This document shows positions 22,981-28,537 of a DNA stretch of 46,111 nucleotides, piece after piece; within the stretch, counting starts at the first letter, position 1, and each line of letters starts with the position of its first letter. Under the pieces are notes generated by a model. It saw only the letters and a list, made by a program, of their open reading frames with translations. It was not told the DNA's origin and made no database searches. Source of the stretch: Patescibacteria group bacterium (GTDB lineage: Bacteria > Patescibacteriota > Minisyncoccia > JACQLN01); NCBI GenBank assembly GCA_038065095.1, contig JBBTRR010000007.1:1-46111 (forward strand), given 5' to 3'. The translations under genes and the position numbers were made by a program.

Positions 22981-24249
22981 ATGAATAAATTTTTACAGAT
23001 TTTTAAAATTCCAGACCTAAGAAAAAAAATATTTTTTATTTTGGGCATGCTTGTTGTTTTTAGATTAGTTTCTGCCATTCCAATGCCTGGCATAGACAGG
23101 GTTAAGTTGGCCGAACTTTTTTCTTCCAATCAACTTTTAGGTTTAGTTAGCTTGTTTACTGGTGGAACTTTGGGAAATTTTTCCGTTATTCTTTTGGGGT
23201 TAGGGCCATATATTACTGCTTCCATCATAATGCAGTTGCTTACCATGATTTTTCCTAATTTAAGGGAAATGTATATGGAGTCTGGTTCGGAAGGCAGGGC
23301 AAAATTTAATCAATTTTCTAGATTGTTAACCATTCCTTTGGCAGCACTCCAATCGCTTGGCACGGTTTCCCTATTTAGAAGCCAAGGCATAATAACCGAT
23401 CTACCGTTTTTTAATTTATTAACTTTAATAATTACGGTAACGGCCGGCACAATGTTTTTGGTTTGGATAGGCGAACTTATTACAGAAAAAGGTATTGGCA
23501 ATGGAACATCACTATTAATATTTGCGGGTATCGTAGCTAGTTTACCTACTAGTGTTGGGCAGAGCTTGATTGCTTTTGAGCCTAGCCAGATTTTTACATA
23601 TTTAGTTTTTATAGCAGTGGCGGTAATTGTTATTGCTGGAGTTATTATTATTTCCGAAGGCCAGCGTAATATTCCAGTTTCTTTTGCAAAAAGAGTTCGT
23701 GGCAGAAGAGTATTTGGTGGTTTTTCTAGTCATATTCCTTTGCGTGTTAACCAAGCTGGAGTTATTCCAATAATTTTTGCTTTATCAATTTTACTTTTTC
23801 CTGGTTTAATAGCTCAGTTTTTATCTAATTCAAGTATTGCGTGGCTGGCCAATGTTTCTAGAAGCATAGCTTCATTTTTGCAACAGCCGGTAACTTACGG
23901 AATTTTATATTTCTTTTTGGTTACTGTATTTACCTATTTTTATACCGCAGTTACTTTTGATCCTAAAGCTATTTCTGAAAATGTTCAAAAACAAGGTGGA
24001 TTTATTCCTGGCATTAGGCCGGGTGAACCAACCGCAACTTTTATAGGCCATGTGGTTAATCGTATAACCTTGGTAGGCGCTTTGTTTTTGGGTTTGATAG
24101 CTGTTTTACCGCTGGTTGTTCAACGAGCCTTTGGCATTACCACCTTAACTTTGGGTGGCACAGCTTTGCTTATAGTTGTTTCGGTTGTTTTGGAAACAAT
24201 GCGCCAGATAAATGCACAGTTAACATTAAGGGAGTACGATAACTTCTAA
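22981..24249 (+). CDS. secY: Preprotein translocase SecY
   Basis: LGLGPYITASIIMQLL, GIGNGTSLLIFAGI, FIPGIRPG, GGTALLIVV. Confidence 0.98.
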   Translation: MNKFLQIFKIPDLRKKIFFILGMLVVFRLVSAIPMPGIDRVKLAELFSSNQLLGLVSLFTGGTLGNFSVILLGLGPYITASIIMQLLTMIFPNLREMYMESGSEGRAKFNQFSRLLTIPLAALQSLGTVSLFRSQGIITDLPFFNLLTLIITVTAGTMFLVWIGELITEKGIGNGTSLLIFAGIVASLPTSVGQSLIAFEPSQIFTYLVFIAVAVIVIAGVIIISEGQRNIPVSFAKRVRGRRVFGGFSSHIPLRVNQAGVIPIIFALSILLFPGLIAQFLSNSSIAWLANVSRSIASFLQQPVTYGILYFFLVTVFTYFYTAVTFDPKAISENVQKQGGFIPGIRPGEPTATFIGHVVNRITLVGALFLGLIAVLPLVVQRAFGITTLTLGGTALLIVVSVVLETMRQINAQLTLREYDNF

Positions 24250-24278
24250 ATAAATAAATTTGGCAGATCAAATTAAAT

Positions 24279-24318
24279 TAAATACCGTGAGATAGCGATC
24301 GCTATCTCACGGTATTTA
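24279..24318. repeat. Perfect 40-bp palindrome centred on GCGATCGC
   Basis: TAAATACCGTGAGATAGCGA|TCGCTATCTCACGGTATTTA. Confidence 0.9.
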
Positions 24319-24328
24319 TGTTCTTCAG

Positions 24329-24357
24329 TTGCAATATTTTTTGGCTTGTATTAGAAT
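24329..24357 (+). promoter_or_regulatory. Sigma70-type promoter of the candidate ncRNA
   Basis: TTGCAA-17 bp-TAGAAT. Confidence 0.6.
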
Positions 24358-24363
24358 GAATTC

Positions 24364-24635
24364 ATGTTTGCGGGGACGACCAAAAGAAAAAGGTTGTCTG
24401 CGCATTCTACGCTGAACCCATCACAGAGGGGAGTCTGTATGATGAGGTTTCTGCCATTAGAGATATGAGGGGTGCGTGCTTGAAGTTATAGGTACGCACC
24501 CGAGATCATAGTTACACAGTTCCTTCGTGAGCCTTAGGGCTCCAAAAAAGTCGCCTCGGGCGACGAAGTCTAGTCGAGCATAAACTAAGCTCGGCGATGC
24601 GGGTCATATGCTAAGCGCTGTGACCTGCTTTTTTT
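24364..24635 (+). ncRNA. Unassigned structured RNA (about 270 nt)
   Basis: Six or more consecutive GC-rich stems with G-U wobbles on the + strand; promoter upstream; hairpin plus T7 terminator at 24599-24635. Confidence 0.6.
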
Positions 24636-24759
24636 AATACAAAAATAAGGGAAGTATGGTATAAAAAACCATAGATAAAGCAATAATAGTTGCTCCTATT
24701 ATCCAAAATATTTTTATGAGTTTCTTAGATTTGTGCATATAAGATATCATTATAATATC

Positions 24760-25176
24760 ATGTCGCGCGAGGAATTTACTATATTACTAAAAAAGAAATG
24801 GCTGGTTTGGCTTGGGCTTGGTGTTTTGTTTTTATTTTCTTTATTTTTAGCTGGGCGAGAGTTTTGGCGTTGGTACGGTATAAATAACGAATACCAAGTA
24901 GTAAAAAATAAAACCGATTCATATGAAAAAGAATCCAAAAAACTTCAAAGTGAAATAGATGACCTTTCAAAACCTGAAGCTTTAGAAAAAGAAGCTCGGT
25001 TGCGTTTAAATTTAAAAAAAGAAGGTGAATCGGTTTTGGTGGTGGTGGGTGAAGATAATTTTCCGGAAGAAAACTTTTTAAAGGCGGAAGTTGGTAGCAA
25101 CTTAGACGATCCAAACAGTATTTGGTTTAATGTTAAGAATTGGTTAAAATATTTTCACCCCGTTACCTCCGAGTGA
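24760..25176 (+). CDS. Septum formation initiator (FtsB/DivIC family)
   Basis: TM segment, coiled coil, LEKEARLRLNLKKEGE. Confidence 0.8.
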   Translation: MSREEFTILLKKKWLVWLGLGVLFLFSLFLAGREFWRWYGINNEYQVVKNKTDSYEKESKKLQSEIDDLSKPEALEKEARLRLNLKKEGESVLVVVGEDNFPEENFLKAEVGSNLDDPNSIWFNVKNWLKYFHPVTSE

Positions 25177-26254: not shown

Positions 26255-27739
26255 ATGAAAAATAAAGAAATATTTTTAGAGGAAAAGTTTGATGGCGGAT
26301 TAAAACACGCTTTATTTTCAAACTTCAGTAATTACTCAGAAGCTATTTTGGAATTAATAGACAATTCTGTAAGTAATCGAATAGTTAGCAATGTACTAAC
26401 TATTAGTCTCTTAGTTACAAATAAAACCCTGACCATTATTGATAAAGGTGGTGAAGGTATGGATTTAAAAAAAATAGAAGAATTTTTAAAATGGGGGATA
26501 ATTAAATCAAGAAGTTATCAAGATATTGGAGCTTATTCACAAGGAGGTAAAGCTGCAATGGGGTATTTGGGAAGGAGTATGGTTCTAATAACTTCTCCAA
26601 ATGGGAAAAAAGAACAATATAAATTTGAAGATGATAATCTTCATGATTACAGTATAAAAAAATATAAGATAGTAAAAATACCAACACAGGTTGAAGAAGG
26701 TCAGACACAAATTGAAATAAAAGGACTAACTAGAAATATAAAAGAAGAGGTATTAAAACCAATTCTTTTAGATACGTACCGTCCTTTAATTGAAAATAAC
26801 GAAATTGTTATAAAATATAATGGGGAAGTTTTAAAATTAACCCAATTTCCTATTGACGAAACTTTCAGGAAACAATCATTTTCTTTTCTAGTATCAAGAG
26901 TTTTTAATGGTACGATTTCCGGATGGGTAGGAAGATTAAGTTCAAAACCTGGAATTAAGGGGGGTATGAGGTGTTATAAAAAAGGCAGGTTGATATGTGA
27001 TAAGGAATTTTTTAGTAAATATGATGCTCATTATAAAGGAACATTAAATTATCTCTTCGGTGAAGTTCATTTAGATCATGTTACCGCTAATACCAATAAA
27101 ACAAATTTTGATAGAGATTCTCTTGAGTGGATGGAGGTGGAAGAAAAAATGTTCGAAATTTTAAAACCACATATTGACGATTTATTGGGTAGAGAAATAA
27201 AAGAACCTACTGACGAAGAAAAAACTAGAGTAAAAGATGCAAAAGAATTGGTTGCAGAAATGATGAAAATGAGAAAAACTGATTTAAAAGAAAATTTTCT
27301 AGAAGGAGAATCGATGGGACAAAAAAAGCCAGAGAAAGATGAAAAGGAAACCGAGATACATAAATCTATTATTCAAAAAAAAGGATATTCACCCAAAACC
27401 CCTCCTCCAAAAGATGCTATTGGTAAAAGGAGGCGGTTAAGAGAATTTATGGATTGGGATGTTAATCCTATAGATGAATCGGTGAGAAGTATAATTAAAG
27501 AAGATGGTAATTCTAAATTATTAGTGATAAATAATCTGTTTTCCGGATTTAAAAAAGCTAGTGGTAATAATCTTTATTTAATAGAAACAGCTGCGATTCA
27601 ACTTTCTCTTCCAGAAAAAGATGAAAAAATGACTCCTGAGGAGTACATAAAATCTTTTGATGAATTGTACAGTTACTTTTGTGATAACTTGGAATTAGCC
27701 AAGGAAAATATTAAAAAAAGAAAAAGGGAAACGAATTAA
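26255..27739 (+). CDS. MORC-like GHKL ATPase
   Basis: AILELIDNS, DKGGEGM, YSQGGKAAM Bergerat motifs; S5-like GEVHLD...NKTNF. Confidence 0.8.
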   Translation: MKNKEIFLEEKFDGGLKHALFSNFSNYSEAILELIDNSVSNRIVSNVLTISLLVTNKTLTIIDKGGEGMDLKKIEEFLKWGIIKSRSYQDIGAYSQGGKAAMGYLGRSMVLITSPNGKKEQYKFEDDNLHDYSIKKYKIVKIPTQVEEGQTQIEIKGLTRNIKEEVLKPILLDTYRPLIENNEIVIKYNGEVLKLTQFPIDETFRKQSFSFLVSRVFNGTISGWVGRLSSKPGIKGGMRCYKKGRLICDKEFFSKYDAHYKGTLNYLFGEVHLDHVTANTNKTNFDRDSLEWMEVEEKMFEILKPHIDDLLGREIKEPTDEEKTRVKDAKELVAEMMKMRKTDLKENFLEGESMGQKKPEKDEKETEIHKSIIQKKGYSPKTPPPKDAIGKRRRLREFMDWDVNPIDESVRSIIKEDGNSKLLVINNLFSGFKKASGNNLYLIETAAIQLSLPEKDEKMTPEEYIKSFDELYSYFCDNLELAKENIKKRKRETN

Positions 27740-27935
27740 TTCAGAACAGTATTTTGGTAGTGTTCCAGAAGTTGCGTGGAATTTTTATATAGGAGGTTAC
27801 CAGCCTGCTCAAAAATGGCTCAAAGATCGCAAGGGTAGAACTTTAACCAATGCCGATATCGAACATTATCAAAAAATTATTGTTGCATTAGTAGAGACGG
27901 ATAGAATTATGAAGGAGATTAACGCAGTATTATGA
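27735..27935 (+). pseudogene. Headless C-terminal remnant of a Type ISP restriction-modification enzyme
   Basis: Translates INSEQYFGSVPEVAWNFYIGGYQPAQKWLKDRKGRTL...HYQKIIVALVETDRIM; no start codon. Confidence 0.8.
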
Positions 27936-28537
27936 AAGAACAATTAGACTATTTTCGAGATAACATTTTTGAGGCAAAATCGGTATACAATGGATGGAAG
28001 ATGATTGTTTATTCTAAGTGGGTTGCTTATGTTGGGCAAGATTTGGCTGAAAAGTATGTAAAAATCCAAAGTTATCATAAAGATTTTTTCTATTTAGCCG
28101 AGAGATCTTTCTTATTCCATTGGGTTTTATTAGTTCTTCATTGTTTTGATCCACGTAAAGACTCTTTTTCATTACGAAAAATTGCACGGCAAGAAACTGA
28201 GTTGTTTTTGAAGGAATCACAGAATAAAAAAATATTTAGTAATTTAAAAATAGTTCGTGACACCCTTTTGGCACATAGGAGTAAGGCTATTAAAAAAAGA
28301 GATATTGGTAGTATGGAGGAACTTGATTTATTTTTCAAAAATATAGAAGATTTTTATAATAAGATTCTAGATAATCTTGGTAAGTCTAAGGTGATGTTCC
28401 AAAGAACCGATGACATAAAATATGATATTGAGGATTTGTTTATGAATATTGAAGGAGGAGAGTTAGCAAGAAAAAACAAATTAGATGGTGATTGGTCGTT
28501 GAAGGGAAACCTTAATAGAATTTCAAATATTCTTTAG
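27932..28537 (+). CDS. HEPN (AbiU2-like) domain protein
   Basis: All-helical; FD..KDSFSL and RDTLLAH (Rx5H) motif. Confidence 0.6.
   Translation: MKEQLDYFRDNIFEAKSVYNGWKMIVYSKWVAYVGQDLAEKYVKIQSYHKDFFYLAERSFLFHWVLLVLHCFDPRKDSFSLRKIARQETELFLKESQNKKIFSNLKIVRDTLLAHRSKAIKKRDIGSMEELDLFFKNIEDFYNKILDNLGKSKVMFQRTDDIKYDIEDLFMNIEGGELARKNKLDGDWSLKGNLNRISNIL

Follow-up and report, generated by a model that had tools for sequence, protein, structure and literature searches.

Hfq-independent multi-hairpin regulatory RNAs of Gram-positive bacteria include RNAIII of Staphylococcus aureus, RsaE/RoxS, and SR1 of Bacillus subtilis. Genus-level distribution and fast turnover are typical of bacterial regulatory RNAs, and most genus-specific stand-alone RNAs in bacteria are trans-acting regulators. 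Orphan structured non-coding RNAs (ncRNAs) of bacteria known from comparative genomics include the raiA motif RNA (~200 nt), OLE, ROOL and GOLLD, while type I antitoxins or 3'-overlapping antisense RNAs are exemplified by SR4/bsrG and RatA/txpA of B. subtilis. Here we describe a putative structured ncRNA gene that lies directly after the translocon gene secY in a genome (GCA_038065095.1, G000 below) from a genus of groundwater Saccharibacteria. Coordinates are positions in a 46,111-nt stretch of contig JBBTRR010000007.1, which was analysed at its full length and is referred to as the window. According to a 2022 preprint on TM7x (10.1101/2022.03.25.485537), validated small RNAs (sRNAs) were lacking for Saccharibacteria.

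The segment 24364-24635 on the plus strand is very probably a real, functional structured RNA gene. Judging from its sequence features, we favour a stand-alone structured ncRNA gene whose product would act in trans as a regulatory RNA, and assign a probability of about 0.4 to this statement as a whole, mechanism included. The locus offers a clean sRNA candidate for Saccharibacteria, combining transcription signals, a compensatory fold and selection well above the neutral background, and its presence or absence within one genus can be used as a handle on function; the narrow distribution and the few sequences available reduce its value.

The predicted RNA resembles the RNAIII, RsaE/RoxS and SR1 group in its stand-alone gene, which has a sigma-70-type promoter and ends in an intrinsic terminator, its length (in the range of 100-500 nt), its string of hairpins, its genus-level distribution, its short unpaired purine- or pyrimidine-rich motifs, and its occurrence in a genome that lacks Hfq. 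It differs from that group in showing no sequence or model similarity to its members, in having core helices that are more conserved than the loops, and in a long-range helix that may close the core. The gene, its signals and the preceding operon end are as follows.

24364-24635, plus strand: putative ncRNA gene of ~272 nt, called from the z-score of its fold, the folds of homologues, covariation, the lack of an Rfam match and the lack of a conserved open reading frame (ORF).
24329-24357, plus strand: promoter TTGCAA-17-TAGAAT, at the same position in 7/7 homologues.
24599-24635, plus strand: intrinsic terminator, a hairpin (24599-24628) followed by U7 (T7 in the DNA, 24629-24635), present in the minimum free energy (MFE) fold and as helix 11 of the full-length alignment A6 (see below).
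24279-24318, no strand assigned: perfect 40-nt palindrome with an 18-bp stem, read from its sequence as the terminator of the rplO-secY operon.

The promoter proposed by the initial annotation, which had been made from the sequence alone, is present as described. By itself such a site is no better than chance, as the 1.5-kb region holds three promoter-like sites against 4.1 ± 2.1 in shuffles; its weight comes from the position conserved across homologues and not from the match score. The position is common to 7/7 homologues and the -10 element TAGAAT is invariant, while the -35 element reads TTGCAA in four, TTGCAT in one and TTGTGG in two of them. Transcription of the RNA would start at about 24364. 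A T-run follows the terminator hairpin in 7/7 sequences, and a promoter and terminator of its own, both position-conserved in all seven, are the sequence signals expected of a stand-alone sRNA. Since the next gene downstream is convergent, the RNA is no leader of that gene. The remark that the region is GC-rich in an AT-rich genome also holds, with 49.5% G+C for the RNA against 36.0% for the genome.

Within 24250-24732 there is no ORF of at least 40 aa, which is stricter than the limit of 60 aa named in the initial annotation. A 34-codon frame is present in this copy (24365-24469), and short frames vary among homologues in start, end and sequence, with indels that are not multiples of three; on this comparison, no conserved peptide is encoded. 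This bears on the proposal that the segment is no RNA gene of its own, and would instead be a missed small-protein messenger RNA (mRNA), a decaying mobile-element remnant or the long structured 3' untranslated region of a neighbour. In its favour are the 34-codon frame, the variability of the locus within the genus, and G001 and G005, in which no terminator stands between secY and the RNA. Here, the palindrome 24279-24318 stands between the RNA gene and the rplO-secY operon, which ends at 24249 by Pfam annotation. Against all three stand the lack of conservation of the frame, the promoter kept in 7/7 homologues, helices that covary and a sequence far more conserved than neutral sites. The RNA contains no repeats and shows no transposase similarity, and no phage or viral similarity was matched either. 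We consider the proposal very improbable.

Rfam searches gave no known family for the RNA or its homologues. At gathering score, eight transfer RNAs (tRNAs) and nothing else were found in the window. At expectation values (E) up to 10 over 24200-24760, 19 weak matches were returned, the top one placing a microRNA model on the palindrome after secY. None of the 19 belongs to the signal recognition particle (SRP), ribonuclease P (RNase P) or transfer-messenger RNA (tmRNA) families, and the one 6S-like match, Bacteroidales-1 (E 6.3), falls on 24243-24342, outside the body of the RNA. At five homologue loci searched at E up to 1, only a nearby tRNA gene (4/5 loci) and one weak unrelated match were found. 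The absence of RNase P, tmRNA and SRP hallmarks noted from the sequence is matched by the lack of any such model hit, and two of these RNAs are encoded elsewhere in the genome, namely RNase P RNA at 15121-15609 of contig C9 (105 bits) and tmRNA at 50848-51209 of contig C1 (103.8 bits). Other candidates were considered as well. For a sponge of the CsrB/RsmZ type, GGA occurs only in the H2 loop and as GGAG after H2b (helices are listed below), and CsrA (PF02599) is lacking from the genome; for a Y RNA, the Ro60 TROVE domain (PF05731) was not found in the genome and no Y RNA model matches. A domain search showed that Hfq is likewise not encoded. A literature search including 2026 preprints (main texts) returned no description of such an RNA, and the sequence data support its assignment to a previously undescribed family of structured ncRNA. 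It is comparable to raiA motif RNA, OLE, ROOL and GOLLD in combining high G+C and structure within an AT-rich genome with covariation support and a probably defined fold. However, none of these Rfam families matches, it is smaller than OLE, ROOL and GOLLD, and it occurs in one genus instead of being phylum-wide or phage-borne.

The plus strand folds with an MFE of -112.1 kcal/mol (z -6.27), a stability reached by 0/200 dinucleotide shuffles, compared with -85.4 kcal/mol (z -3.69) for the minus strand. Plus-strand folds from all six lineages have z between -6.4 and -8.9. The helices listed in the initial annotation are all found where it placed them and all lie within the MFE fold; one short hairpin, H2b, was overlooked there. 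Pairing was assessed on seven sequences from six lineages (the metagenome sequence L055 is almost the same as that of G005) in two alignments, the model-fitted core alignment A5, and the full-length MAFFT alignment A6, which was not structure-fitted and took its structure from the copy of this genome. Cells below are positions of single sequences scored for pairing. The predicted elements are as follows.

24370-24403, plus strand: H1, the 5' hairpin, containing GGACGACC/GGTTGTCT; helix 1 of A6, with 11 pairs, 7 two-sided changes and 85.7% of cells paired.
24411-24414, plus strand: 5' strand of a tentative 4-bp long-range helix with partner 24571-24574.
24415-24449, plus strand: H2 hairpin with the apical loop GGGGAG, in which GGGGA is present in 7/7 sequences.
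24450-24461, plus strand: H2b hairpin, with 100% of cells paired and 1 two-sided pair change.
24470-24501, plus strand: H3, a 13-bp hairpin; helix 5 of A5, with two-sided change at 6/13 pairs and 97.7% of cells paired (93.4% in A6).
24523-24568, plus strand: 3' sub-domain made up of a pyrimidine tract, a closing helix (CUUC 24523-26 with GAAG 24565-68), H4 and H5.
24527-24543, plus strand: H4, with two-sided change at 4/7 pairs (A5).
24550-24564, plus strand: H5, 100% paired, with one covarying Y-R pair and a stem and loop that are almost invariant.
24571-24574, plus strand: 3' strand of the tentative long-range helix, overlapping the first two bases of H6.
24573-24595, plus strand: H6 hairpin; helix 10 of A6, with 100% of cells paired and 1 two-sided pair change.

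These elements differ in what is conserved. H1 is free in sequence with its pairing kept, and the terminator hairpin (helix 11 of A6) shows two-sided change at 6/10 pairs with 95.7% of cells paired. The apical 5 bp of H2 are invariant in six sequences and lost in G001, where GGGGA stays. H2b reads UCUG/UAGA here and UCCRUU/ARUGGA in most relatives, with G003 off at one position. The basal GGGUG/CACCC of H3 is almost invariant. The junction at 24523-24568 drawn in the initial annotation stands in its two hairpins, as H4 and H5 are supported, but pairing is at its weakest in the closing helix CTTCG/CGAAG (75% of cells), whose last pair is specific to this genome. Conserved unpaired motifs include the GGGGA of the H2 loop (7/7), the C(U/C)UUCG tract before H4, and CUCC after H3 (5/7). 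Hairpins H2, H2b, H3, H4 and H5 would form a core that is probably closed by the short long-range helix, in which three pair types are seen at each of 2/4 pairs; 88.9% of its cells are paired on A5 and 60% on A6. A UGGAG/CUCCA pairing around H3 was also considered; it is feasible in 5/7 sequences, neither here nor in G004, competes with H2b, and was excluded from the model.

Compensatory change is seen on both alignments. On A5, 94.7% of 302 cells form standard pairs, against 29-44% in controls with slid partners, and 16/45 pairs change on both sides. On A6, 88.2% of 493 cells pair, against 34-41% in slid controls; two-sided change is found at 25/75 pairs, and the covariation score is reached by 0/500 shuffles. 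The selection on RNA structure claimed at the outset is borne out in that pairing is well above the slid controls on A5 and A6 alike, and the search for homologues found them in 6/8 genomes of the genus, with helices that covary. The primary sequence appears to be constrained too, since the RNA core is 62-76% identical between species while the four-fold degenerate sites of secY, near saturation, are 29-54% identical. By this measure the RNA sequence is under purifying selection.

Under the regulatory interpretation, the RNA would consist of H1, then the five-hairpin core probably closed by the long-range helix, then H6 and the terminator, and would act in trans. Its exposed invariant elements (the GGGGA apical loop of H2, the C(U/C)UUCG tract before H4 and the CUCC that follows H3 in 5/7 sequences) would contact other RNAs via base pairing, in a mode like that of the Hfq-independent multi-hairpin regulatory RNAs of Gram-positive bacteria. 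In favour of this are the predicted promoter and terminator of its own, the convergent orientation of the next gene, a genus-level distribution and fast turnover like those of typical regulatory RNAs in bacteria, the invariant unpaired purine-rich and pyrimidine-rich motifs, and a genome that encodes no Hfq, CsrA or Ro partner. Trans-acting base pairing is nevertheless a tentative proposal, and several observations weigh against the statement as a whole. Complementary sites were listed for four conserved unpaired motifs and their contexts inspected for the H2 loop; no convincing target emerged, the longest genomic complementarity (15 nt) being to a look-alike palindromic hairpin, and the genome sites that are complementary to the loop of H2 all lie away from translation starts. 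The counts of covariation overstate the number of independent events (seven sequences, with L055 close to G005 and the 3' parts of G003 and G004 97% identical), and A5 leans to the model while the structure applied to A6 is that of one member sequence. The minus strand of G007 and of G005 folds about as well as the plus strand, so the strand call comes mainly from the promoter and terminator. The argument from G-U mismatches in the initial annotation stands for this genome (8 G-U pairs in the consensus helices; -112 vs -85 kcal/mol). Finally, paired columns of the core are more conserved (0.65-0.81) than unpaired ones (0.50-0.73). Such paired-column conservation, together with a possibly closed core, is at least as compatible with an RNA that binds protein or has tertiary structure as with one acting by base pairing.

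This last point is part of the basis of the possibility that ranks second, close behind the regulatory one, in which the RNA would be the protein-binding or scaffold RNA of a small ribonucleoprotein. A protein would recognise a defined three-dimensional core built from H2, H3, H5 and the junction strands, and the variable H1, H4, H6 and terminator would need pairing only. In its favour, paired core columns exceed unpaired ones, the GGGUG/CACCC base of H3 and the stem and loop of H5 are almost invariant in sequence beyond what pairing demands, the peripheral helices vary freely and are always compensated, and the long-range helix could close the five-hairpin core. On the other side, there is no identifiable partner; the neighbours are not specific to RNA-bearing genomes; the genome lacks CsrA, Hfq and Ro; support for the long-range helix is weak when the alignment is not fitted (60%); and conservation at the genus level may just mirror limited divergence. 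We regard a scaffold role as possible, at somewhat lower odds than a regulatory RNA acting in trans.

The distribution of the RNA is narrow. BLAST against 61 related genomes matched parts of the RNA in three genomes from the genus; a covariance model of the 170-nt core (R1) found the RNA in 6/8 genomes of the genus, this one included, and in 0/3 other genera of the family. No copy is present anywhere in the genomes of the congeners G002 and G006 by the covariance model. A second core model (R2), derived from the full set of seven sequences, added no member among 150 other class genomes (a single outside hit had E 0.03) and none among 150 other genomes of the phylum. Three outside hits were rejected: one in G148 (E 6.9e-4), which spans the end of an ORF into a spacer, and one in G123 (E 3.6e-3), which lies inside a 324-aa ORF, both away from secY and both absent with the second model, and one in G127 (E 0.03), at chance level for 151 genomes. 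A pattern search of metagenomes gave 98 stretches, of which 80 were examined with the model; one of these (L055) is a homologue, near-identical to the G005 copy, and the remaining 79 are chance matches in GC-rich DNA, because the search pattern was too GC-rich. The same kind of search on genome contigs returned only two relatives already known. No paralogue and no ribosomal RNA look-alike is found in the genome.

Among the genomes searched, the RNA is confined by these sequence criteria to one genus of groundwater Saccharibacteria. At 5/5 homologous genome loci it immediately follows secY, and the convergent small ORF and divIC come next as they do here; the metagenome copy likewise occupies this position after secY. 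The absence from 2/8 congeners and from outside the genus marks it as a young accessory RNA and not a housekeeping one, and the comparison indicates that the gene arose or was inserted at a site behind secY that is variable. The suggestion of a new ncRNA class in candidate phyla radiation (CPR) bacteria accordingly survives in part: this is a new family with compensatory variation and purifying selection and without an Rfam match, but it belongs to one genus and is not CPR-wide. The copy in G003 has an extra hairpin inserted after H3 and a 5' region that is different and longer, and its gene appears to be a mosaic relative to that of G004 (L021 1445-1762 against L003 1436-1710), with 97% identity over the 3' 125 columns and 53% over the 5' 220 columns. 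A further variant is seen in groundwater run X14, where contigs end at window positions 24543 and 24600; it is represented by loose contig ends only, and differs in H4 (GUGGGCC..GGCUCAC) and in the terminator hairpin. In all, the contigs of four DNA sequencing runs cover the locus with identical strains, plus pieces of a relative in X14.

The position beside secY had raised the thought of a diverged SRP RNA. No SRP RNA is detected elsewhere in the whole genome, nor in any of 11 family genomes searched at E up to 1 (0/11); the size of the RNA is near that of the large bacterial form (256 model positions), and it adjoins a translocon gene. However, the RNA has no domain IV motif and matches neither SRP model (RF00169, RF01854), and two congeners do without it, unlike a housekeeping SRP RNA. 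Moreover, neither the SRP54 M domain (PF02978) nor an SRP54-type GTPase (PF00448) was found in the genome, thus neither Ffh nor FtsY, in a search that detected its control domains in 14/14 genomes; among 61 genomes of the class it gave short P-loop-like matches only, one of which reached the cut-off, over 40 positions. Without Ffh an SRP RNA would make no sense, and the idea is practically untenable. A tempting misreading is removed in this way: the RNA beside secY is no hidden SRP RNA, because these bacteria appear to be without any SRP system. The secY adjacency is positional only, at a spot that is variable in the family. As a separate observation, the SRP pathway is apparently absent from this 100%-complete genome (no SRP RNA, M domain or SRP54-type GTPase). 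Loss of SRP has been reported for related Parcubacteria (PMC4508563); no such statement for Saccharibacteria was found in the literature searched.

The initial annotation had also raised a replacement for 6S RNA, that is, a diverged 6S-type RNA binding the RNA polymerase holoenzyme. Like 6S RNA (RF00013), this is a small and, by its signals, separately transcribed and stable RNA of broadly similar size, and no other 6S RNA is detectable in the genome. Its architecture is of another kind, as its 5' and 3' ends lie in separate hairpins, with no closing stem, no rod and no central bubble, and it is best described as a hairpin string around a multi-helix core with unpaired ends. Neither RF00013 nor any 6S-like model matches inside the RNA at E up to 10, and the RNA is not universal in the genus (it is not found in 2/8 congeners) or present outside it. 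A 6S function is highly improbable.

Downstream of the RNA, the first gene is convergent.

24637-24741, minus strand: gene for a 34-aa membrane protein without a Pfam family, whose stop codon lies 1 nt past the T-run of the RNA.

The protein begins MHKSKKLIKIFW..., and its gene is divergent from divIC. The layout recalls SR4/bsrG and RatA/txpA, with a small hydrophobic ORF in convergent orientation, a shared terminator region and a length of ~200 nt, and the RNA could be a cis-antisense regulator of the 34-aa gene (of type I toxin-antitoxin or 3'-overlap kind), in which a duplex over the shared terminator would control the mRNA. The ORF (24741 to 24637, minus strand) ends 1 nt from the U-tract of the RNA; no U-tract follows the shared hairpin when the minus strand is read, and the next terminator-like site there is H5 reversed (24564-24550 followed by TTTTTT), which would make the overlap ~90 nt; and the convergent layout is kept at all homologue loci. 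But the small ORF is conserved independently of the RNA, being present in 8/8 genomes of the genus (the two RNA-less ones among them), matched in 2/3 of the family's other genera and, with weaker matches, in 26/61 genomes of the class; it is therefore a core gene and not an RNA-dependent toxin, unlike the partners of SR4 and RatA. In addition, the minus-strand T-run after H5 is found only in this genome, relatives carrying CCAACCAAG, and any overlap would leave out H2-H3, where conservation of the RNA is highest. An antisense role is improbable, if less so than the absence of an RNA gene, and the 34-aa gene is treated here as a neighbour. None of the neighbours, secY, the 34-aa membrane protein gene and the gene for DivIC, is specific to RNA-bearing genomes.

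The spot after secY holds other content in relatives that lack the RNA. In G002 it is occupied by an ORF whose product is probably membrane-bound or secreted (L025 2770-3260), in G006 by ~200 nt of unrelated hairpin-rich sequence (L026 2770-2990), and in G008 and G009 from other genera (L027, L028) by other genes. The 900 nt after secY were also taken from 40 further class genomes (39 usable); a long same-strand frame opens within 170 nt of secY in 32/39, and the five longest gaps contain unrelated hairpins or repeats. In one genome of another family, G091 (L134), positions 60-230 after secY form an unrelated GC-rich, strongly paired stretch of ~170 nt, which may be a different lineage-specific RNA at a similar position.

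A broader interpretation would take the present RNA as one of a wider and undescribed set of structured RNAs in ultra-small Saccharibacteria, GC-rich, lineage-specific and quick to evolve, to which the block upstream of groES in this genome (see below) would also belong, with its five-hairpin core as a ribonucleoprotein, ligand-binding or catalytic module of the episymbiotic lifestyle instead of an ordinary base-pairing regulator. If true, the core module might serve host interaction or replace lost protein regulators. We hold this to be unlikely, and less so than the antisense role; a regulatory RNA acting in trans remains our preferred interpretation.

Further features of the window and genome were recorded in passing. 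About 1.6 kb downstream of the RNA, positions 26255-28537 (plus strand) of the window encode a 494-aa HATPase_c_3 protein and, after it, a 201-aa protein for which HEPN_AbiU2 and DpnI_C gave weak matches below the cut-off; the two may be a defence-type gene pair. A second hairpin-dense block running from promoter to terminator lies at ~63,700-64,200 (minus strand) of contig C6 of this genome, upstream of groES (63176-63451). It contains CAGAGGGAAGUCU, one base off the tip of H2 and within chance expectation, and shares with the RNA no word of at least 10 nt and no sequence relation. The palindrome after secY (24279-24318) is one of a set of dispersed CGATCG-centred hairpin repeats built on GAGATAGCGATCGCTATCTC, with at least seven copies in the genome; further copies are located at C1:99753, C1:200959, C1:217814, C1:218484, C1:227219, C3:43822 and C14:30846. 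DNA contigs from other samples attach varied flanks to the secY palindrome, and read depth rises there.

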